Source: Podarcis filfolensis
Lineage: Eukaryota
Strand: one strand, 5' to 3'
Assembly (NCBI GenBank): GCA_964270895.1
Contig: OZ185436.1
Length of the DNA: 64,000 nt
Both the position numbers and the translations under genes were made by a program. The notes beneath the pieces were generated by a model, which did not search any database, was not told the origin of the DNA, and worked only from the letters and a program-made list of their open reading frames with translations. Of this stretch, positions 2,755 to 53,600 are shown one piece after another. Positions within the stretch are counted from its first letter, which is position 1. Each line of letters opens with the position of its first letter.

Positions 2755-2882
2755 CAGACGGTTCTCTTTGCCTTTTGCTTCTTTACAGGATTTTAAAAGT
2801 TCTTTTTCAATACTGTTTGGTGTGAACTCAACATTCTTCTCCTTTAGGCTCTGGTAGAATCTTCCCAAGAATGAAACACACA
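2755..2882 (-). CDS. MANF: MANF coding exon 2 (128 nt)
   Basis: acag acceptor, gtaagt donor, in frame with exon 1. Confidence 0.95.
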
Positions 2883-5032
2883 CTGTAAAGCGAAGGAGAT
2901 ATAATGCTGAAATGAACTTCTTCCCCGAAATTCTCCTCTCTTCTTTTTAACTTACACAAAATGAATGAAGCATAGCAGATCGAAAGCCAACACTCTAGTG
3001 TAGGAGATGAACTACTGGGCATATTTATGACAGCAGACTACCTTGTCAAGGGGCATGTTTCATACAACATGGCAGTCCAAATCCGTTCTTAGCTACAACA
3101 GGGGTAGCTACCCTTTCTCACATTAATCTTTGGGCAGGGTTGGATGTGGCCACAGTTTTGCACACAGCCTGTCTCCCCAGCTGATTCATGAAGACCAGCT
3201 GAGGGGGGAGTGTCATCACTTCTTCTCTGCTTATCAAATATTTAATCCAATGACTGGGGTAGGAGCAATTTGCATTCTCAGTGGGATGCTAGATCTAGCC
3301 ACCCCAATGTGATGCCTTTTTTTGCTGCCACTGCCAAAATTAATGGAGAATTTGAGGGGCGGGGAGGCGGACGGTGTCAGGCACCTGGACTGGGGCATCA
3401 CCTCTGTCTTATAAGATGTTTGTGCCTTGGCTGAGCCATATTCTCTCTGTTAAGATCAAAAGTCTATAGCTGAGATGTGCTAGGGAAAATAATACAACCC
3501 AGAATGGCTGTGTGTTATCAACCATGAATTAGCAGCACTCTGCACATGATTAAAAACACTATTATTCCTTGTGTTCCAAGGATGAAACTTTGTATTGAAA
3601 ACTGGTTCGTTCCAGAAACAAACTCTGGCTTCAGTCAAGTCATGAAACAAATATACATAAATAAAAGCAGCTCCTCAAGCTGCTGCTCATTCATTTAAGG
3701 GTTGAACAATTAGAAATCCTGGAACACAGTCTTCTGCATTAGTGTGTAACCAGGAACATAAGTACCGTAGAGGAGACCTTCAGCCTGTGGGTGTAACCAT
3801 TTACTAAGTCATACAAGGGAGGACCCATACATGTCATTACAATTATAGAGACTATATCACACTGTAGATATAATTCACAACATATCCTACTTAGTATCAA
3901 TCTGAAGGTCACGATTACAGAAATGAATGAGGTAAGAGTTTGTTTAGGCAACTTATAACCCACATCCTAGGAGTTCTGGGCAGGTCACAATAAAGCAGAG
4001 CCTGTTTAAAACATATATCCAAAGGGGGGAAAGGGAATACACTAATATCAAACATAAAAAGCACTAATGCCCCAGAGTCTGAAAAGCCAGTCTGATTTCC
4101 ACCTAGTGCCTGTGTGCCAGTAGTCTGTGGGAGCAAAGGAATTTCAGAAGGAAAGACATTCCTGAGCTAGGGTGCCACAGCAGAAAAGGCCCCCACCCAC
4201 ACACCAGTGTCAAATGTACAGTTCCCAGCAGCAGGAAGTTGAGGGGGGCTTCCCTGGAAGCTCCCAACTCAGGGGCAGGAGGATACAGCCCAAAACCTGG
4301 CACAATCCTTTTAACTGCCCTTCCTTCGCTAGCAGCAGCAACAACGAACCAACCCCACTTCTTCATTATAGATGCAGCACCCTGACAACTACCATGAGCC
4401 CCCAGTGCAGTAATGGTGACCTCAAAGCTACACCAAGACATGTGGGTCTATCCCTACTCCTTATATAAGCAGCTTCTGGGGAAACCCCTTTGGAAGCTGC
4501 ATCTTCTCAATGGGCTTCACAGCGACAGAGCAAGCAGGACACTTGAACCCCCTCTCCCCTTCTTCTCCAAAGCCCCCGCAGCCACCCGCACTGATGCTCG
4601 CCTTCTTGGTTCAAACCGACTCGCTGGCTGGCAGCTACAAGAGCTTCTCCTTCCCCATGGCAGCCTTGCGATGTGGGGGTCCAGCGTCCCTCCCATTGAG
4701 AGGAAAGCGGCACCGGGCCGGGGAAAGCAGCGTGGAAGCAGCGGCTGAGGCAAGACTCGCCTCCGGTTTCCAAGCCAAGGGGAGGCCGTGGTCGTGAAGG
4801 GGAGGCGCCGTTGCCACCTGGCCACCCCAGCAACGCGCTCCCTCCTTCCCTCCCTCCGCGAAGCCCCGGGGGCCCCTTCCGCCCTCCGCGCCCGTCGCTG
4901 CTCAGACCATCCACGCGGGGCCGGCGACTCACCTTCGCAGTCTCCCTCCCGCAGAGCGTGGCTCTCCCCAGGGAGCAGGATCAAGGCCAGCGCCGCCCAG
5001 AGCCCGTTGGCTGCCCGCATCCTCCCTCTCAT
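2755..5032 (-). CDS. MANF: Mesencephalic astrocyte-derived neurotrophic factor (ARMET), exons 1-2; exons 3-4 not found in window (left of position 1)
   Basis: The spliced product [76 protein letters not shown] has a signal peptide and the MANF saposin-like N-terminus. Confidence 0.96.
4933..5032 (-). CDS. MANF: MANF coding exon 1 (100 nt; two in-frame ATGs at 5032 and 5020)
   Basis: ATG with G at -3; G|gtgagt donor. Confidence 0.94.
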
Positions 5033-5238
5033 CGCCCGCCTCGGCCGCTCGCTCGGCTCGTACTGAAGAAAAGCCCCTCCACAGCCGGCTCCTTGACGAC
5101 ACGCTCGCCGCCCACCCGCAACCCGATTGGCTGCCCTGCCCCTCTTCCTGCTACGTACGAGGCTGCCATTGGAGCACTCCGTTGCAAGTCTCCACGCTCC
5201 CTTTGCCGGTTGGCCAGGCGGGCTTTCGGGACAGTAGA

Positions 5239-5257
5239 GTTGGCGGCCGCCGATTGG
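5239..5257 (-). promoter_or_regulatory. ER-stress response element (ERSE)-like: CCAAT-cggcggccg-CCAAC
   Basis: Exact N9 spacing of the CCAAT-N9-CCACG consensus; MANF is a known unfolded-protein-response target. Confidence 0.65.
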
Positions 5258-6339
5258 ACAAGCCGCCTCCGAATGAAACGAGGGAGTCGTCGCGCACTTT
5301 GAGCGCGAAGCGTGCCCAGCGGCGGAGCCCTAGCAGTTTACGGCAAAGGTGTAAGGAGGCGGAGTTCGCCATATTTGTTTCGGGCACGATTTCGCGCCGT
5401 CACCACTGCCGGCCCGCCTCGGGCTGTGCTTCCCACGGCCCTTGAAGCGCAGAGGGGCAAGTGCACGTGTGGAAGGAAGGGCCCATCCCCGAGCCGGAAG
5501 CTGGCGTTTGTTAGGAGCCAGTTCTTCTTTGCGAACGAGCAGCTTTTTGGTTAGGAGAAGGTGGCATTGCAGCAATAGGGGCGCAAGTGGGACCGGAGCC
5601 CATCTGCGGGAGACCAGTGGCACCTCCGGGCCTCGCGGGTAAAGGATAAGGCCCGCTTTAAGTGGGCTGCCATTAATCCAAAGGATGCACAAGGGTCCTA
5701 CAAACCGTGAGCTCAGGGTTTCAAAATCAGTCTGCCATAGCAATGAGAAGAACTTTGGAGTAGCGGCTGTAGCAACAGCAGCAATAAACATTGGTCTGAA
5801 ACGGGAGATGCCCCACGTGCGTGGCAGCTGTGCCACGTCTAGAATATGTGTGTGTTGGGCAAGAGGGCACTCCCACTAATCTGGAATATGCAAGGCCTGC
5901 AGACCAGCCATTTTCAGGGGCACCTAGGAATGCATATGTTCTTGCCAAAGGCATTTACAAGCGTATTTGAGAGACACTCATTTGGAGCGGGAGATTGGAG
6001 CCAAACGCTAGAAAGGGAAATGTTTTAATATACAAATTATAAGCCTCACATGGTGGAGACATAAAAATTCTTAGTGCGGTGTGGGACCTTTTAAGTAAAG
6101 TGTGCAACACACATTTTACATTACATAGGTATTTCTTTGCAACATACCTGCACTCCTTTTAGCTGGATTACGATTCAGAATTATAAAAGGAAAGTCACCA
6201 GCTCCATCCTCTCCCCACAGTATTTATTTGTGCTACACATAATGCCCATGAAAGTAGAATGCATCACTACACTGACAGGTAATTGCAGCAAAATGAGATT
6301 ATAGAATAAACAAAGTTTGCTTTTGCATTGGTATGTATA

Positions 6340-14605: not shown

Positions 14606-17600
14606 CTGTTTAAAAAACGACACAGAACATTCATACGTATGTCAAAACAAAGAAATATTTCTGCACTTCCATGGTCCCACACCGTTCACAGAACATTAAT
14701 TACTGTTTTATAGATTTTGTGTTCAAATATAAACAAACATCATAGCTGTCAATGTTTCCCTTTTTTAAAGGGAAATTCCCTTATTCCGAATAGGATTCCT
14801 CGCAAGAGAAGGAAAGAGTTGACAGCTATGAAATATGTATTCTCTGCCTTCTCTAGCTTTCCAAACGGAAACACCCGCAGTGTAATAATACCCTGAGGTA
14901 CAGGGAAATTAAACTGAACCAAAACAATCACAATTGTGTGGTGGCTAACTCTTGCCTTCTTGATATTTACAACAATAAAGTGATCAGATAGGAAGGAGGG
15001 CAAGATTCATCTGCCTTTAATTATAGAAAGTGTAGGGTATTTAAGATGGTGCAGCTATCAAAATTTCCTCTTCTACACAATTGCTATCAATACATAGAAG
15101 TCCTGTTCTTTGCATCAGTCACTGTATGCAATACAGCCTATAGTTATGTATTTTTATATTGTAAATTGCCCTGCGATCCTCGGATGAAGGCTGGCATATA
15201 AAATAAACAAAATAAATAAAACACTCCCCTACATAGTATTGTCTGCTACCCTGGTATACTCAGATATTCCAAAATCAAAGCACTTACTAAGAATAAACAT
15301 ATACTTCCAAAGTTAATTTTAATTTGCAGCAACAATGCAATTTAGAACAGATTTTCAAGGCTTCACTTCAACCCCTATCCATATTGTGCAGCTGAGCTCT
15401 CTATCATTACAATTTCACATAGTAAGAGCAGGATGAATATTTTGAGTATTGGTGCATGTACATAGCAACAGATTTTACAGGTACCACGTGCCGCTCCATG
15501 TCCACTTTTAACTTTTAGTACTGGGGTTTGCAAGAGGCTACTTTTCTTCTCTCTTCTGCCCTTCTAAAACCTGTGCTGTGCTATAGTACTAAAGGGCTCA
15601 GGATTGAGGCTGGCTGCTGTTCTGTTACTGTATATAGCTGCCGGAAGTAAGGTGAACAGTGTGGGAGGACAACATCAAGGAGCACATCCCACCAATCAAA
15701 AGCTTTCCTCTGGAATACAGCAGCTGTTGGGGAATTAAGGAGGCCAATTCCTTCTGTTTTCATTTCCCCACCCTTACCTCCAGACACTTTAACTGCCCTC
15801 AACCATAGACCAACCTGCACATTCTGCCAGTTTCCTGAAATCCCTGAAAATGGGGTGGATGAGCAAAATTTCCTCAGAGTTTTCAAACAGTAGCTGAGGC
15901 CTCCCAATGCTTCTTTAACTTAAAAAAAAACAAACCCTTTTGAGTACTCATAGCAGTGTGAATTAAGGCCGTATTTCTTTGGGGATGGACCATTCTCAAA
16001 GCAGCAAGAAGAGTGCTTTGAAAGTGCAATTCCTGCTGGCACAGACTGGTTTCAAAGCACTCTGTTCTCCCTGTTTGAGCAGGTACAGAAGAGTGCTTTG
16101 AAAGGGTGGCTCTGGATGGATCTACGCTTTCAAAGGAGACCCATGCTTAAATAGGAAGAGCATTTTGAAAGTCAATCAGGGAAAGTGCTTTGAAAAGGCT
16201 CCCCTTGCTGCTTTCAGAGTACCCTAACTCTCAGGAAATGTGGGCTTACCACACACTGCTATAACAGCTTGAGGATCTTTTAACTGTTTTAAATAAGCAA
16301 GCAGGAGAAACACCCTTTCCCACCTCATCAAGTTTAGCAAGGTGATAAATCTCCCGGTAATATCACAGGGCGTACAGTAGAGTAAATCAGTATAAATAAA
16401 CAAAGAGGTGGATTACAGAATTGCTCTCAGTATGCTGGCTGAATTAGAGGCTGGTTCTGCAATTTGAAATATAGTTTTACCTTACGTAGCGTCCGTGCAG
16501 GCAGTGCTGGGGGGGCATCATTAAGATGGTGATGGAAGGCATCAAAATGCAGCGAGTAGTGACCTTAAATGAGATAAATGGAAAAAGTTATCTGCGAGCA
16601 GTAAGTCAGAAATAGCACTTCCAACTCTTAAATGTCCTGTGATGCTAGTTAGACAGATATGTCCTGATAGTGCAGTGTCAGTTTCCTAGAAACCAATTAT
16701 TTTACATGGTAAATTGTAACTCAATGTACACAACATCAAACAGCAAATGAAGGCAGCAACACAGTGTAACACACGCAGTTATCATATCAAGGCTCCCGTG
16801 GCAAGACAACAGGCTCTTTAGCATTAAATATCTGAAACCTTAATTTATCTTCAATAACTGGAGCTCAATGTTTTATTTGTTAAACTTAGGCTGCAATCCC
16901 ATACACCTTGTAGTAAGTCCCATTGAACTCAGTGTGACTTACTTCTGAGTAAACATGCATGGGATTGTACTGTACAGCTTTTAGCAAGACACTGGGCTAG
17001 TGTACATCACTCATAAGCCCAATTCCAGTCCCAAAGCACATTTAGAGTACTGCTTTTTTTTGGTTTTTTTAAGATTTATGAAATCGTCAGCCAAGAGAGT
17101 TGGTGTAGCCTTCTCTTCCTTTTACTCCTTTTTCATTTTTCAGAAGGCAAACAGGTGGCACTGTTTGCTTTCACATGGTTTAATTGGGCATTAGTGCAGG
17201 ATTTCTTCTGCAGACCTACTGGCCATTTCCTTACCATGGGGCAGGCTTCGGGGAGGTACTGGTGGGGCCAGGATGCTCCCAACATGAGTAGACAGGAATG
17301 GCAAGGCCTCTCTGGTTCCGCTGTCCAGACTCCAGCTGCTTGGTGCTGCTGGAACAGCTGAAGGATGGAAACAGATTGAATTTGGGTAATGCTGTAATAT
17401 CTGATGGGACTGAAGGCTGACTTTTTAAACTCACTGAATCAAGTGAGTTTTGGGACTGGCCCCAAGCTGTTAGGTTATGTCCTGCTCTGAAGGCAGCGAG
17501 TGGTAAGAGAACTGTGCACTTCTTGATCATGAGAAAAATACGAGTTGTACCTACCTGAAGTGTAGTTTTTCCATTTCCTAGTGAAAGGTCAGCAGAGTGG

Positions 17601-20600
17601 GGCGATGGCTCCACCTAGCAGTCACAAGGCAGACAGCAACATTTTGGGAGGTAGGACTCCCAGCATGCATCCAGGATGCAGACTCGCCAAGCTCAACAGC
17701 CGGGAGTGTAAGGATAGAAAGAAGAAGAAACATGCTACCTCCTAATGTCAATGTGACTGTGCTAATAACAAGAATCCTGTAGCCAAACCAACTAGGGCAA
17801 GGTCTGCTGGCCTTTCATCAAGAAATGGAAAGCTACCTTCCAGGTAGGTACAACTGTACTTTTCCCCATTTCCAGTGAAAGGGTCAGCAGCTAGTCTTTC
17901 TAAGGAGAGAGTGCAGCTTCATAGCGGGAGGACCTGTTGCAGAACCCTTCTGCCCAAAGCTGCGTCTGAGGATGTGTAGGCATCCAGGGGGCAGTGCTTG
18001 AAGGTCCTGGGTGCTGCCCAAGTAGCTGCTCTGCAGATCTCCTGTAGAAAAGAAGGAGAGGAAAACATACCCCTGGCTGCTGTGGCTTTTGTGGAATGAG
18101 CCATGATGTGCTGAAGGGATAGGAAACCACTGCACCTCTTAGGCTGGCGCTATACATGCCCTGATCCACCTAGAAAGGGTGGAAGAGGACATCTTCCTGC
18201 CTGGTGAGGGTGGGTGGAAGGATACAAACAGGGTTTCAGTTAGCCTATGGGCTTTAGTTCCACCAGTGTAAATCTTCAGGGTTCTGCAGACGTCCAAGGA
18301 ATGTCAGGACTTTTCCAGAGGATGGAGTAGGGATGTAGGAGAGAAGAACCATCTCCTTCCGGAGATGAAATCTGCAGAAGACACTTGGGAGTCTTGGTCC
18401 TTAGCTCTACTCTGTTTCTATGGAAGACGCAGAGGTGTCTGGCAACAGAAAGAGCATTCAACTTGGAGACTCTGCAGGTGGAGGTGATTGTGATGAGGAA
18501 GACCATTTTCAAAGAAAGGAGCCACCTTGCTGAGAGGTTAAAAAAAGAGGGTGTTGAAGCACAGAGAGAACCCTGTGAAGGTCCCAGGAGGGGAATCTAT
18601 GGAAAGTCAGAGGGCATTTAAGAGATGCTCCCTGGGGAAAGTGTTTCAGGAGTGGGTGGGAGGAGAAGGAAGGAGAGCTCAGCCTTGAGAGAATGGAGGA
18701 GACCACTGCTGCCTGTTGTTTTAGCACACTGGGCCTTTTCTCTGGTCGTCTTGAAGGAATTCTAAGATGGTAGAGTTACTGGGGTTATTGACTTTACACC
18801 CTTCAGTAGAGCACCTCAGGAGGAAAGATTTCCAGGTGAATTGGTAGATACGTAGAGTCAAAGACTTTCTGCAGTGCAGCAGAATATCTATGATGTCTGG
18901 AGTGAGATCCATCTGTCAGCCATCTCTGGTCAAAAACCATGCAGTCAGATGCAACCAGGCAGGATCTGGGTGAAGGATCAGACCTTGAATTAGGATGTCC
19001 AGTAGTTGGGGGAGTCGCCACAGAGAGGAGAGTGCTAGGCTCAGTACCTGCGGAAACCAAGGACAATGTGGCCAGAACCGAGTGATGAGGAGCACTCTTG
19101 CCTTTTCTTCCCTGATTTTCCTGAGGACCCATGGGAGTATGGGAGTTGGAGGAAAAGCATAGAGTTGACCCTGTGGCCAGGGGGAGAGCAGAGTGCTCCA
19201 GGCCTCCACTGATGGGATGTGAAACCTGGTGAAGAATTGTGGAAGTTGGCAATCCCTATTAGATATATAGAGATTGATTTTGCATTGGCTGAAGCTTTGC
19301 TGGAGTAGTTGGAAAACAAGTGGGGCTTCAGGCTCCACTCTGCCTGGTTTGCCCGAGTGTTCTTAAGTCCGTATATGTGTTCAGTAGTTGTGACTGATAG
19401 AATGTTGATCCCTGCCTAGTCCAAGAGGAGGGTTGTTTCTTGCTGCAGATTCGGGGATCAAGCTGAACCTTGCCTGTTGATGTTTCATTTGGCTTTGGTA
19501 TTGTCTGTCCAGATGTACATACATGTTCCAGAGAGAGAGATGTTATGCAAGGTGCAGAAGGGCTACGTGGGTGGCTCAAAGCTCCAGCCAGTTGATACTC
19601 ATGGAGGATTCTGCTGCAGACCACTGGCCCTGGACTGAGAGATCCCTGCAATGTGTGCCCCAACAGACGAGTCTGGCATCTTAAGGTATTATCATTTGCT
19701 GGGAGTCCTGGAATGGGGAGTCCCTCCTCAAGATGACTAGGTCAGTTCACCATTGCAGGCTGTGATGGAGCTGGGGTGACAGCCTGATGTGAAGGCGCCT
19801 GCTGAGGGCAATGTTTTTCGGAAATGGCAGTAGGGCCCACTGGAGGGGCCAAGCATGGTGCTTCACCCAAGGAGTTGCTGAGACGCAGAGGCCAAGGACA
19901 TGTGCCACCACCATTATATTGGCGTGAATGAGGGCTAAGAAGAGAAGAAGAAGAGTTTGGATTTGATATCCCGCCTTTCACTCCCTTTAAGGAGTCTCAA
20001 AGCGGCTAACATTCTCCTTTCCCTTCCTCCCCCACAACAAACACTCTGTGAGGGGAGTGGGGCTGAGAGACTTCAAAGAAGTGTGACTGGCCCAAGGTAA
20101 CCCAGCAGCTGCATGTGGAGGAGCGGAGACGCGAACCCAGTTCCCCAGATTACGAGACTACCGCTCTTAACCACTACACCACACTGGCTAAGGCTGTACT
20201 GCAGATTTGCTTTTTGAAATCTTTCCAGGGCTAAGGAGATGAGGCTTTCGGTGGTGTACAGGAGTTCTCCAAAATGTATTAGGTGATAAGTTGGGGGGAT
20301 ACGGCTTTTTTTTTTTAACTGACCAGGAACTCGTCAGTAGTTCTAAAAGGACTGATTGTAGAAATGTGGAGAACAGTGCCTATTCTGCCGCTTGTTGTCC
20401 GTCTTGTATGCTAGCAATACCTTCCACTTGTCATCTAGACTAAGATGTCCTTTAGGGCATCCTCCCTGAGAAGCTTGCCTCCTGCATATGACGCGATGGA
20501 GAGGCTGACATAAGAGTGTCTACATCCCAGTGTTTGAGCATTAAGTGCATCTGGTGACCACATCTGCTACAAGGGCTCAAGAAGCACATTGAGAGGTATC

Positions 20601-23600
20601 CATAGTAGCATCTGCTATGAAGGCAGCTGAGCAATGGATTTTTAGTAGGGTTTCACATGTGCAACTTGTATCCTGGTTTGATGGGTCTAAGGGCTCATCT
20701 AAGAGCTTATCTTATAGATGTTTAGATAAAAACAGAGGCTGTTCGTGCTGCTCTAATGGGCAGGGTGGGGGCTTCATGTGTTTTATGGATTGCATAGTTC
20801 AATCTGCATTCAGTGGTGTCCTTTAATTGTGAATCCCCACCTCTGGGAAGTAGATTTTCAGAAACTAAGAGAGAAATAGGACAATACATGCTAGGGGTTT
20901 TAAGGGAGTCAGTGAATTCAGTTTCTAAGGTGTAAAATGTATTCACAATAGGTACAGCTTTTTATATTTTGGGGAAATCTCCCATTCTGCCTTAGTAGCC
21001 TTCTTTAAAGGAGCAATCACCACAACTCCTTCAGGGGAGTGTAGGGAAACAAAGGGGAACATGGCCACAGGGAAAGAGGACTATTATTAACTCCTAATTT
21101 TTTCCTTTTCTGTCACAGAAGAAATTCAGAGAGAAAACCTGAAAGATCAGCGAGAGCAGTAGCGACCAATGGCAGGAGCAGAACTGGATTCTTGCTGGGA
21201 GTCCTATCTCCCAAAAGGTTGCTGTCTGCCTTGTAACCACTAGGTGGAGCAATCAACTTACTCTGCTGACCTTTCACTGGAAATGGGAAAGCAGTTTAGA
21301 TAGATTAGCATTATTAGGAGACCAAGAAGATATCTTTTAGACTACAGATTTTTTTTAAAAAAAGCAGGATGAAGGAAGCAGTAACAAAGAACAAGGAACA
21401 GACATTTCAGTATGCAGAACAGAGCCTGTTACTGTGCCGCGATGACCAAGATGAGGTAAGTTTGTTTTCCTCTGGTCCCAAACCTTTTTTTAAAACAAAA
21501 AACAAAACAAAATTCCTTATACATTAATTAGACAAAACAAGTAGAAAAGAGTTGCATTTTCCTGATAAAGGTAACACACTTATAAAATTCATGGTAGCAG
21601 TCAAACAGAAAATAAGAGGCTTAAAAAAAACTATAGCAATGAAAACAATCACCAAGACTTTGCCCAGACCTTTCCTTAACATTGATCTTACTGCCAAACA
21701 TCAAACAGAATCTCACCGACAGGGGAGTTCTGACACAAGACTTGGCAAAAAGTATACATCAGCCTTGGTTGTAGAGGAGAATGCTGTGAATTATAGTTTA
21801 TGTGGGGCCCTCACAATGAATTAATTATGTTTCCCATCCCAACATTCACCTTGTTATGAAGCTACCATTCACTATTTGTTTAACAAACCTTCTTATTCTG
21901 TTCTCACTGAGAACCTAAATCCACAGTTTTTGAGTCCGTAGCAGGCATCATTTTCACTCAGCCTATACGTACTGACTTCCTGCTGCTGCCACTGGATGAG
22001 CAAGTTGTGTGCATGCTTTGAAACTGCTCTAAACTGATCACTATCTATCTGAAGGTCACCACCTGTATAGAATACACATGAAAACCAGAAACAAAACATG
22101 GAATATCTTAACTGAAGGCAAATTCGATACCCTCCTCCCTGCTGTGTCTATCGTATTTTAGACTAAAATGCTTGGAAAACCTGATGTGCAATTCTGATAT
22201 TGGATGGTTTATCCCAAATAAAGGCTTAGCTCATGCTTAAACTATCTTTGAAAGTCCCTGCTGTCCTGTAGTGGCCAAACCATCGGCTGCAGAGTTTGTC
22301 TTCAGTGATTAGATTCATCAGCAGAGAAGCTATAATTGAAAAGATTTTGCTTTAAGCTGTTCAATGTCACTCTACTGTCAAGAAAAATCAATGTTAAAAA
22401 GGGAAAGTGACAGGTCTCCAGATTTACCCAAACATGTGCTTTCAGCCGGTTAGGGAGAGCATTCCAAGCATCTTCAGCTGTATATGTTGTGCAGTTGATA
22501 TATACACCAACTCCCCTTTCAATGGCCTATGGCAGGGATGCCCAACAGGTCGATCGTGATCTATTGGTAGATCCCCGTGAGGTTCTGGTAGATCGCGGTC
22601 GATCTCTGGCTCCCTTTCCTTAGCATCCCTAAAACTGACTCCTGCCCTGCCCCCCCGCACCACCCTTCATTGTTTGATCTCTGGAAGGGAAGACAGAGCT
22701 TTCTCTGATGCTGTTTTCATCCATAGCGATCTTTTTGTGAGTGACTTTACCCCTTTGTCCTTTGCTTTTAACCCCCACAAAAATGGAACTTTTCCCTCCA
22801 AAAAAGCTGTTTTTAACCCCTAAAAAATGGGGCCTTTCTCCTCCCTAAAAAAAGTTCACCAACTTAGAGCTGACCCAGATCACTGCCAGTTTTTAATTCT
22901 GAAAGTAGATCGCAGTCTCTTGAGAGTCGGCCACCCCTGGCCTATGGATTACTGACCTTTCCAAAGTGCTGCTTCTTAACTGACGTTTCCCCTTTATGTA
23001 GATAATCTCTATGCAGGAAGGAGATTGTCATATTTGAAACATGACTCACAAATGTATATATTCTGCTAGGAGTATATATGGATTGGGCAGTTGCTGTGTG
23101 ACTAACTGCTTGTTCTAAATACACATGGTTTTAAGAGATTATAGTGATAAGAACACTCTGAATGAACATAAAATGAGACAATAAAATTAATTAATTAATA
23201 GTATTTAACAAAAAATTATATACTGCTTGACTGCAACAAAACCTCTAAGGGCTGATAAGAAATATTAAAATTATCAGCAAAGTAGTTAAAAACAAGTAAT
23301 TAAAACATTTAAAAAATAATTTAAGTCAAGTGGTCAAGTGGGTACATATGAAGTAAGGAGATCCTGTAAATAAACTGGCTTCCAAGTGATTAGGGCTTTA
23401 TAGGCCAATACTAGCACCTTGAACTTCACCCACTAATGCAGATCTCTGAGCAGAGTCTTGCTCATGTCAGCAACCGTGCTACAGCATTCAGCACTAGCTG
23501 TAGATTCTGGATCCAGCAAAGCAGCAAAAAGCAAAGCCTGAAATAAGTGTCATAAATAAATAATATAAAATAGGGCAAGGAATACCTTTTTCAGCAACAG

Positions 23601-50600: not shown

Positions 50601-53600
50601 GTTCCCTCACTGTGAGAAGGGAACTAGGCAGAGGGCCTTCTTGGTAGTGGCGCTCACCCTGTGGAATGCCCTTCCATCAGATTTCAAGGAGATAAATAAC
50701 TATACAACTTTTAGAAGACATCTGAAGGCAGACCTGTATAGAGTTTTTTAATATTTGATGTTTTATTATGCTTTTATAATTGATGGAAGCTGCCCAGTGT
50801 GCCTGGGGCAACCAAATGATAAAATTATTATTATTCATCTCAATCTGGTCTTCCCCAGCCAACCCTCAAATCTTGGTTGCAGCCCATGGTTTGCCTGGAG
50901 CAAGAAAAATCACCAGCTCAGGTTTAGATGTAACACTAAGCAAAGTCAGTCCCTTCTGGCCAAAAGCTACAGATACCACCCACTGTGGAGTGGCACCTGA
51001 AGTTACAAAGATAAAACCTCAGAAATAATGGACAAATCCAGCCATCTATTATGCAAATGTAATTCAAAATAGGTTAAACGCTTTGGAAAAAAAATATATA
51101 AAAATGATTTATGAGATGGAATATGATCTCTTTGTTCATTTCATATATATGCCTTATTTTGATTTCCACTCTAACACTCTATGTGTTTGTAAAAGTTTTC
51201 CTGTAACATTAAAAGCAAGGCTTACAGCAGACTGAAGAGCTCCCGATAGTTCTCGTCTCCTTTTCCTTCCGATACCAAGCTGTCAAGCTTATCAATCAAT
51301 TCTGCTTCCACCTGTATTAGAGAGGAAGAAATTGTAAGACAGTAGCTGGCTTTATATATTCCAAACATCAAGGAGGCTGTGAAAATTATATTTTATGGTT
51401 CATCTCTTATGCTCTGCAGGAAGCCTGCTTTTATGAAAGGATGGATGATTTTTGCCTTCATATAAAAACATTTCCAAAGCAGCACTGACCTAATTTAAAT
51501 GTAGTAAAACAATAGCTCAACCTGGAGAATAACTTGCCTTATTTGTCTCTAACACTGTCACACCACAGTATTCAAGGTCTTTTTTGACTGAGTCAAAAGT
51601 AACATGGGCTTGTTTTATTTTTGTAACCCTGTCCTCTTCCCTGGGTTGCTTGTTCATTTATTTATCTCTTAGTAGAACAAGTGAGGACTTAAAAAAATAA
51701 ATCTATGGAACATTTATTCTACTGCTTTATACTATCTGCTAGCAATAGAAGACAAATGCTCTGAAAGTAAACCAATCCTTGCCATCAATTCTTAGCTAGA
51801 TGTTTCCCTTCACCATTTCCAAGGTACCTTCCCGTAACATTAGTGAAAATTAAAGGGCTATACTAAATCTCACGATCCCTCTAGACCAGGCTTCCTCAAC
51901 CTCGGCCCTCCAGATGTTTTGAGACTACAATTCCCAGCATCCCAGACCACTGGTCCTGCTAGCTAGGGCTCATGGGAGCTGTAGGCCAAAAACATCTGGA
52001 GGGCTGAGGTTGAGGAAGCCTGCCTAGACACTTAGTTTCTTCTATGAAAATATTACGCATCTGTTCAGAGTATTGTTGCATTCATTAAAACTCTTTTACT
52101 ATTTCTGGCAAACTACTATTTCATCAAACCACTAACTATAGCTTCACAAACAATTTTCAGTGGGGTAAGCAGCTCTTTTGATTTCATAGTCTACGAGATG
52201 CCCTGTGACATCACTTACAAGGCCCATCAATAGCCCTCGGCACATTATCCTGCATTATTTGGAACTGCCTGCCAATAACATACTTTTTCCAGACACCCAC
52301 ACACTTTTCCAGGACTCCTGTAATTCTTTCCCCCTGTCCTAGCAGGACTATATTTGCCCCTTCTCATTAGAAGAAGAGTTTGAAGAAGAGTTTGGATTTG
52401 ATATCCCGCTTTATACATTGTACATTATACATTATACAGGAACAAGGGTTATCATGAGATGTCTGAGAGAAATGGTGAAAAAAACACCTGGAAAGTCTCT
52501 ATATGTGATCCACTTTCCTTATGAAATTTTATTTTGCTCTTCAGCAAGTTTTGTTGTATTATTTTTCCTGTAATTGTTTTTATGCACAACAAGCAATAAC
52601 AACAACAACAAAGAGAAAGATCAAAGCAAGAAAGGAAAGATATGAGGAGAGAGGCAGAAGTGGTAGTATTCCAAAAACAGCATTATAATTCCAAGCAGTT
52701 GTCCTTGATAAGTATATTATTCAAGAATATTTTTTTCCAAATGACTCCATGCGAAGAGGGCAGCTGCCAATCATGTTTTTTTGCCTTAATGTATTCAATA
52801 AATGGATGTCAAGCTTTAGAAAAAAATGCACTTCATTTCCAGATGGTGTAGGGTTCAGGTATATTTTGTTACCAGTTTTGTGGTATTCTTATAAAATATC
52901 TGTTCATGCAGATGCATTACGTAGCTAAAGTTAGTGGTTCAGATCTAAAACTAGCTACTCACCCAATTGTTTTGCTTTCCTGCAGCTCTTAAATAGCTAC
53001 TGTTCTATTAAGATTAGAAAGGAGACAAGAGAGCAAACTGCACACCTCCAGTGGTAAAGGCTTGTTTAGCACAGGACTCCATGCTAGAGGTTGTGAAGGG
53101 GGCTCTCTTTTCCCCTTCTAGGCACAAAGCCCCATCTGAGCCTGGAAAACAGCCCTGCACTCAGCCTCTGTGATCAAGAAAGCCAAATACAATCTTTTTC
53201 ACTTTACACTCTCTCCTTTCTCTGCACCAGTCTCTAAACCCCCACCTGCTACACCCCCTTTTTCTGTTTCCCTTCCCACATGTTTCTCTGCAACCCTAAC
53301 ACTTTATCTGCTGTCTGCTTTCTATGTGCATTACCCTGTTTTGCTCTGCTTCCACATCCCACATGGCTCTCACCGCTTCCCAAAACGAACCCTGTTTTCT
53401 GTCTGTGTTGCTTTCCGATCCCATCCCTCTGTTAATCTTCCATCCTTTTCTCTCTTCACATCCCAAACATTTCTCAGCAACTCCCTCGTTTCATTCCATG
53501 TCTCTCTTCCTCTGTTTTCCCCTGCCTATTTCTTCCTCTGGCTTGCTGAGTTTGCTGGTGACAGAACACTCTTCCAGCAATTCACAATCAAGAGAATTTC

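Follow-up and report, generated by a model that had tools for sequence, protein, structure and literature searches.

A DIRS1-like element in a DOCK intron

The stretch of DNA analysed here is a 64-kb window of contig OZ185436.1 from the lizard Podarcis filfolensis (assembly GCA_964270895.1), and all coordinates are positions in this window. Its minus strand carries the exons of a DOCK-family gene, running from 62540 to a last exon at 14605-14102, and the intron between the exons at ~23673-23590 and 16563-16481 holds, in sense orientation, an element that almost certainly derives from a DIRS1-like retrotransposon. The whole element occupies 17535(+/-1)-21290 on the minus strand, has TTT at both ends and measures 3,756 bp, or 3,503 bp once a nested short interspersed element (SINE) and one duplicate of its target are subtracted. 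A first-pass annotation had described an internally deleted DIRS1 copy of about 3.5 kb without the SINE, lying in a DOCK intron; the size, the flanking minus-strand exons, and the remnants in DIRS1 order from which the reverse transcriptase (RT) core is gone all agree with that description.

The element is framed by inverted terminal repeats (ITRs), the left (5') ITR at 21184-21290 (minus strand, beginning with TTT at 21290) and the right (3') ITR at 17568-17674 (minus strand). An inverted-repeat search returned exactly the coordinates first noticed by eye, although the accompanying count of some 12 mismatches and two indels did not survive: over 107 nt, 91 positions are matched (85% complementary) with 16 mismatches in an ungapped pairing, and 94 of 108 with one gap in a gapped alignment (E 2e-32). 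The match scores 129 bits, against a maximum of 42.8 bits when the best inverted match was recorded in each of 200 shuffles of the 4-kb region. Outside the right ITR lies a right extension (rE) of 33 bp (17535-17567, minus strand), which ends in TTT and is complementary only to the right part of the internal complementary region (ICR).

The ICR (17803-17890, minus strand) is in two parts, left at ~17861-17890 and right at ~17803-17863, whose overlap on an A-run corresponds to a circle junction. The right part, at 17803-17864, pairs with 17533-17596 as its reverse complement (53/64, 59.9 bits, better than 200 of 200 shuffles); it had been recognised as a mirror of the outer end, but it reaches ~10 bp further than was then described. 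The left part, at 17862-17890, is indeed the inverse of the other end, with 27 of 29 positions matching the reverse complement of 21263-21290 (41 bits). Taken alone this left arm is only moderately significant, since one of the 200 shuffles equals its 41 bits, but it lies directly against the right ICR and is present in other copies as well. When the 3' 361 nt were folded as RNA the terminus paired with the ICR (z -7.0), and none of 100 shuffles was as stable.

The ends were mapped by aligning 17 3' ends, eight 5' ends and seven ICRs from the window copy and its relatives in the same genome. In the 3' ends homology halts at ...GTAC-TT(T) or a decayed version of this sequence, in the 5' ends it begins at TTT, and the sequence of the ICRs, ...GG-AAAA-GTA, is that of both ends joined and reverse-complemented, in agreement with the reading of the ICR as a circle junction. 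In the window copy the terminal TTT lies at 21290-21288 and ~17537-17535 and is complemented by the A-run in the ICR, as in sister copies; the start formerly placed at 17539 or 17543 is thus 4-8 bp short. For 15 of 17 copies, the terminus matches the copy's own upstream ICR with a score that no shuffle reached. Such matches are strong inside a subfamily and weak across subfamilies, and in the subfamily of the window copy the best match is often not with a copy's own terminus. The flanks of the element have just the T-run in common, and the element itself contains only the inverted repeats and their echo in the ICR, with none of the split direct repeats by which Ngaro and PAT elements are recognised. 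Many 3' ends of the window subfamily also have a short GTAC-N4-GTAC palindrome directly before TTT (17535-17550 in the window), which is imperfect in other subfamilies and too short to be given weight.

Coding remnants and relatives in the same genome

Remnants of gag, RNase H, a methyltransferase (MT) and a tyrosine recombinase (YR) lie between the ITRs on one strand and in DIRS1 order, and all frames are broken. They were recognised through related proteins. P0001, an RT-RNase H-MT protein, was retrieved with the RT of a sister copy; the YR-bearing P0005-P0007 were retrieved in a full HMMER search with the recombinase piece of the sister copy L027, whose best YR relatives are squamate proteins of 41-45% identity. 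Among the Pfam labels on these four proteins LAP2alpha and RT_RNaseH are above the cut-off, and Dam and Phage_integrase (PF00589) below it. When the MT peptide and the L027 YR were used in word-indexed homologue searches there was no match, whereas the full HMMER search did find relatives; a scan of Rfam over 16400-22000 returned nothing at E 0.1.

The gag (ORF1) remnant, at 20340-20937 (minus strand), is LAP2alpha-like, frameshifted and interrupted by stops, and was detected by tblastn with residues 68-234 of P0007 (E 8e-11). P0007 is a predicted fused LAP2alpha-RT-RNase H-YR protein; its gag part aligns to 20937-20438 and its RNase H and YR parts align downstream. PF11560 is carried both by P0007 and by open reading frames (ORFs) of sister copies, and LAP2alpha has been described as a descendant of DIRS1 ORF1 (PMC4495291). 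This remnant is an addition to the first-pass inventory of RNase H, MT and YR on the minus strand, which stands by protein homology rather than by direct Pfam matches. The pol remnant, at 18928-20330 (minus strand), is interrupted by the SINE and comprises the end of the RT thumb/connection, RNase H (~19750-19440) and the MT (~19320-18930), as seen with P0001, P0007 and P0011; residues 172-510 of P0001 align to 19920-18928 (E 4e-28). The YR remnant, at 17925-19246 (minus strand; P0005, E 5e-41; P0006, E 7e-53), overlaps the MT in another frame. Its catalytic motifs have decayed, with a stop in the TDAS region, HSTR changed to HSTK, and the motif of the catalytic tyrosine changed to KHC.

The RT core had been reported as unrecognisable, and nothing in the window matches residues 1-171 of P0001 or 404-567 of P0007. 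Because the RT motif (YL/IDD) is lacking, we class the window copy as a defective derivative and not as a complete element. Inverted ends without an RT core would also suit a DNA transposon or miniature inverted-repeat transposable element, or chance repeats around debris. This reading has virtually nothing left to recommend it: it is refuted by the ICR with its right extension, by the co-linear gag, RNase H, MT and YR remnants, by the alignment of copies, by the RT in sister copies, and by shuffles that fall far below the ITR score.

Relatives were sought in the whole genome (1.5 Gb, 349 contigs). The MT peptide matches at least 36 places, and two RT peptides at least 20 and at least 24; all the relatives fetched are decayed, with 65-94% DNA identity to the window copy in local blocks. 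No near-identical sister was found with the window copy, L023 or L029 as queries (L024 was not a query). A tree of the connection-RNase H-MT region, anchored on P0001 and built from 32 of 62 rows (those with 150 or more aligned residues, together with L032 and the four Ngaro rows), places the window copy with L026, L028, L032, L040, L048 and L053 (ultrafast bootstrap, UFBoot, 80) and apart from Ngaro-type elements (UFBoot 100). Two relatives still carry RT, each scoring below the Pfam cut-off: L047 keeps YLDD (RVT_1, E 1.5e-6), and L032, whose 5' ITR and left ICR are as in the window, keeps an RT with a decayed YxDD (RVT_1, E 3e-4). L032 is without its 3' end.

The search for intact copies that the first-pass annotation had proposed yielded none of the window's family. 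Intact YR frames matching PF00589 were rejected as family members: four are Ngaro-type, and another lies on a likely bacterial contig. The Ngaro-type elements, L063-L066, have YR, RT and RNase H like DIRS elements but form a clade of their own. They are young, with long open pol and YR frames; for L065 and L066 this age follows from split direct repeats that are 100% identical, and the third ORF of L065 encodes a GDSL hydrolase. L067 (G000:C133), a contig of 51.7 kb with 59% GC, dense genes and an intact phage-integrase frame, is likely bacterial or prophage contamination.

The nested SINE, the age of the insertion and the loss of the RT

A tRNA-derived SINE of 246 bp including its (CTT)n tail, with A/B-box-like motifs, is nested in the pol remnant at 19940-20185 (minus strand). 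We liken it to Squam3B by length and CTT tail, from the published description of a tRNA-derived head, ~238 nt and a (CTT)n tail (PMC7983390). Four further full-length copies lie in 734 kb, the closest with 95.6% identity, and a 42-bp fragment at 52371-52412 resembles the SINE tail. Sequencing-run contigs at the locus, where eight runs were compared, allow the SINE to be placed in time. In DNA contigs from runs X4 (organism B) and X14 (organism C), both of related organisms, the element is present at this locus and shows the identical RT deletion, but the SINE is skipped, with a joint 19926-20186; seven letters remain between, which identifies GGCTAAG as its 7-bp target duplicate, at 19933-19939 and at 20186-20192, in part within the SINE head. 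No SINE skip is among the joints listed for X3 (organism A). Since B and C hold the deleted element without the SINE, the SINE insertion is recent, and the SINE is ruled out as the cause of the RT loss.

The element itself is much older. Its ITRs have diverged by a Kimura two-parameter distance (K2P) of 0.17, or 12 of 78 positions in the inner part alone, and A differs from B at 140 of 5242 letters (2.7%). Inner ITRs have been described as identical at insertion (PMC3266345); if they were so here, the age of the insertion would be about six times that of the A/B split (a range of roughly 3.5-10, from few sites). A K2P of 0.17 set against 2.7% leaves ample time for decay in place.

A deletion of ~0.8 kb has removed the tail of gag together with the RT core and its YxDD region; its junction, placed by eye against L032, lies at ~20330-20340 (minus strand). 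Compared with RT-bearing relatives the missing stretch is ~0.75-0.85 kb, and what is now the gag tail is joined to the RT end. Six copies were compared with L032, and each has its own deletion breakpoints around the RT. A fixed RT-less family of ~3.5 kb, suggested by the lengths of the window copy (3.5 kb), L026 (3.65 kb) and L027 (3.5 kb), was rejected on these differing breakpoints and contents. Nor do the deletions look like one splice event, as the junctions differ (GT-AG ends were not systematically scored).

On balance we think it probable that a DIRS1-like copy inserted at TTT, decayed in place, lost its RT after insertion and later gained a SINE. Both termini would have been rebuilt on the ICR and the ends joined across the T-run into a circular intermediate, from which the recombinase would have crossed the joined ends into a TTT of the DOCK intron; the literature describes the ICR as the template on which the cDNA ends are made. 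Decay in place would have followed, with the ~0.8-kb deletion removing the RT core, and the SINE would have entered the already deleted copy. The DIRS1 layout claimed at the outset is upheld by these data; the circular intermediate, then called established, is a model. The substrate proposed for the recombinase is a double-stranded circle bearing a joined trinucleotide, and the cDNA of Dictyostelium DIRS-1 is described as mostly linear and single-stranded, its transcript as incomplete at the ends (PMC7192593).

Several observations weigh against this account. Pfam gave no relevant hit on the window frames (16 ORFs, three whole frames with stops as X, and five short pieces, one of them off-frame and so uninformative). 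No empty site was seen among the eight runs, so that TTT as target and the absence of any longer duplication are deduced. The UFBoot of 80 for the window subfamily is modest support, coming from that P0001-anchored set of 32 rows out of 62. No orthologous copy still with RT was found, B and C being already deleted. Most pointed is the make-up of the eight elements that keep both ends (the window copy, L023, L024, L026, L027, L029, L031 and L030+L098): the RT core is present in none, RNase H and MT in three, gag in two, and four are minis of 0.6-1.1 kb. The absence of RT and the minis agree no less well with a deletion that preceded insertion.

The minis retain little besides ITRs, YR tail and ICR, and almost no coding sequence. 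All four have both ITRs and the ICR. In three of them the point where the interior resumes was located: L023:8111-8970 (861 bp) at window-equivalent 18037, L024:1632-2694 (1,063 bp including an insertion) at 18125, and L029:5018-5592 (575 bp) at ~18050. In the fourth, L030:5005 with L098:943-1607, the ICR lies 554 bp from the 5' end and the element is split by ~5 kb holding long RT-like ORFs. Such copies raise the possibility that the window element was born deleted, its interior lost at the RNA or cDNA stage and its RT and recombinase borrowed from intact relatives, within a family that would largely be a non-autonomous swarm keeping only ITRs and ICR. In its favour, L032, the sole RT copy with a matching 5' ITR, lacks a 3' end, and in Dictyostelium DIRS-1 the RT is described as acting in trans and the ICR as essential after first-strand synthesis (PMC7192593). 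No two copies share breakpoints, however, no near-identical sister was found for the copies used as queries, and the difference between RT in none of eight and MT in three of eight is not significant (Fisher p ~0.2, by hand). The RT, being central, is the part most likely to be lost in any large deletion. The copy census, moreover, took in the window and 24 loci, 25 stretches in all, each at a hit of a terminal query, and such queries favour copies that keep their ends; the rest of these stretches are mostly solo ends or fragments, which are common. We therefore consider a window element born deleted a tentative alternative, somewhat unlikely as a whole.

For the timing of the RT loss itself, unique breakpoints, the lack of amplification, general fragmentation and long residence lead us to favour loss after insertion as the likely order. 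Loss before insertion with help in trans, to which the lack of RT in any both-ended copy and the repeated minis point, is a lesser possibility. More doubtful still is the broader proposition that the DIRS1 family spread largely as independently formed RT-less or mini derivatives consisting of ITRs, ICR and ~150-250 bp upstream of the ICR, the window copy included. Should the minis have moved with help in trans, the smallest cis-sequence that DIRS retrotransposition requires in a vertebrate could be read from them; cis-elements for DIRS copying have been tested in Dictyostelium (PMC7192593), and the literature consulted for comparison holds no vertebrate test.

Related systems and the host gene

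The nearest described layouts are those of AcDIRS2 and AcDIRS1 of Anolis carolinensis, which like the window element have an ITR, a right extension and a two-part ICR (PMC3266345); this comparison is by published description and not by sequence identity. AcDIRS2 is listed with a TTT start, junction AAA, an rE of 28 bp, an ICR of 39-60 bp and a long ORF overlap (PMC3266345 Table 3), to which correspond in the window copy TTT, the A-run, an rE of 33 bp, ICR parts of ~30-61 bp and a YR frame lying over the MT. The AcDIRS elements are 5.9-6.0 kb long with ITRs of ~162-166 bp and a full pol (PMC3266345), whereas the window copy has 3.5 kb, ITRs of 107 bp and no RT core. Xenopus DIRS-like families share TTT at both ends, ITRs of ~120 bp, left and right ICRs, the order gag-RT/RNase H/MT-YR and many degenerate families (PMC9210276; XtDIRS2/3 in PMC3266345), but are amphibian and retain many intact copies (PMC9210276). 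Dictyostelium discoideum DIRS-1, from which the mechanism above is taken and whose proteins can act in trans, is an active element with TTA ends and 316-bp ITRs (PMC7192593). The squamate proteins XP_061443118 (Rhineura), XP_058041733 (Ahaetulla) and XP_053138354 (Hemicordylus), the best YR relatives of L027 and each named 'uncharacterized protein', align along the YR, RNase H and gag remnants of the window copy; unlike it they have open frames and, in the Hemicordylus protein, an RT. Such relatives, like the SINE type, point to a lizard, probably a lacertid.

Catalogued DIRS1 families of lizards exist for Anolis (PMC3266345 Table 3; DIRS-1_ACar in PMC9210276), and sauropsid DIRS elements are placed on a separate basal branch (PMC9210276). 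The literature searched, with subscription journals, Repbase, Dfam and supplements outside the search, gave no account of a lacertid DIRS family or of an RT-less lizard DIRS element. The family belongs to a known superfamily already known in lizards, and may itself be uncatalogued. The window copy is most likely an ordinary fossil, and its superfamily has earlier been reported from Anolis, turtles and Xenopus. It is of use as a neat illustration of how ITR, rE and ICR are laid out and as a phylogenetic marker, an old DIRS insertion common to A, B and C with a nested SINE absent in B and C.

A likely in-frame cassette exon of 123 nt belonging to the DOCK gene lies outside the element, 178 bp downstream of it (17235-17357, minus strand), with canonical AG/GT; in a single contig from run X20 it is spliced to the exon at 16563, with 27 letters on the short side. 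Retention of the element for an effect on DOCK splicing or expression is a thought prompted by its sense orientation just upstream of this exon and by low-depth contigs from runs X15 and X16 (two studies, presumed RNA), which run from the cassette-exon donor and stop at 17562 and 17569. But contigs from runs X17 and X18 (presumed RNA) continue through 17569; depths are 3-7 and the runs may hold DNA, and the stop falls where other copies share sequence. In B and C the element has gathered substitutions and indels along its whole length, and its two ITRs differ by 15%; organism F, more distant, also splices the cassette exon, with just scattered low-depth cover and no long piece listed on the element. 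Five presumed-RNA runs likewise give only patchy low-depth contigs over it. We consider such a host effect very improbable.

Other exons of the host gene match TPR_DOCK (E 1e-15) and, weakly, DHR-2; a PDB search with one DOCK exon gave no match. Within the DOCK family the gene is likely DOCK3, judging from peptide motifs and DOCK3-MANF synteny; a MANF-like exon (ARMET_N) is present at 2755-2880 (minus strand), downstream of the last DOCK exon, as is a GC-rich island at 4001-6000. At 21386-21452, 95 bp beyond the 5' end of the element, a single-copy piece matches the middle of a 572-nt contig from organism F; on the plus strand it has an open frame with a GT donor at 21457 and is possibly an exon of an antisense transcript. 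A short fragment of a very high-copy repeat lies in the next intron, at 16905-16974.

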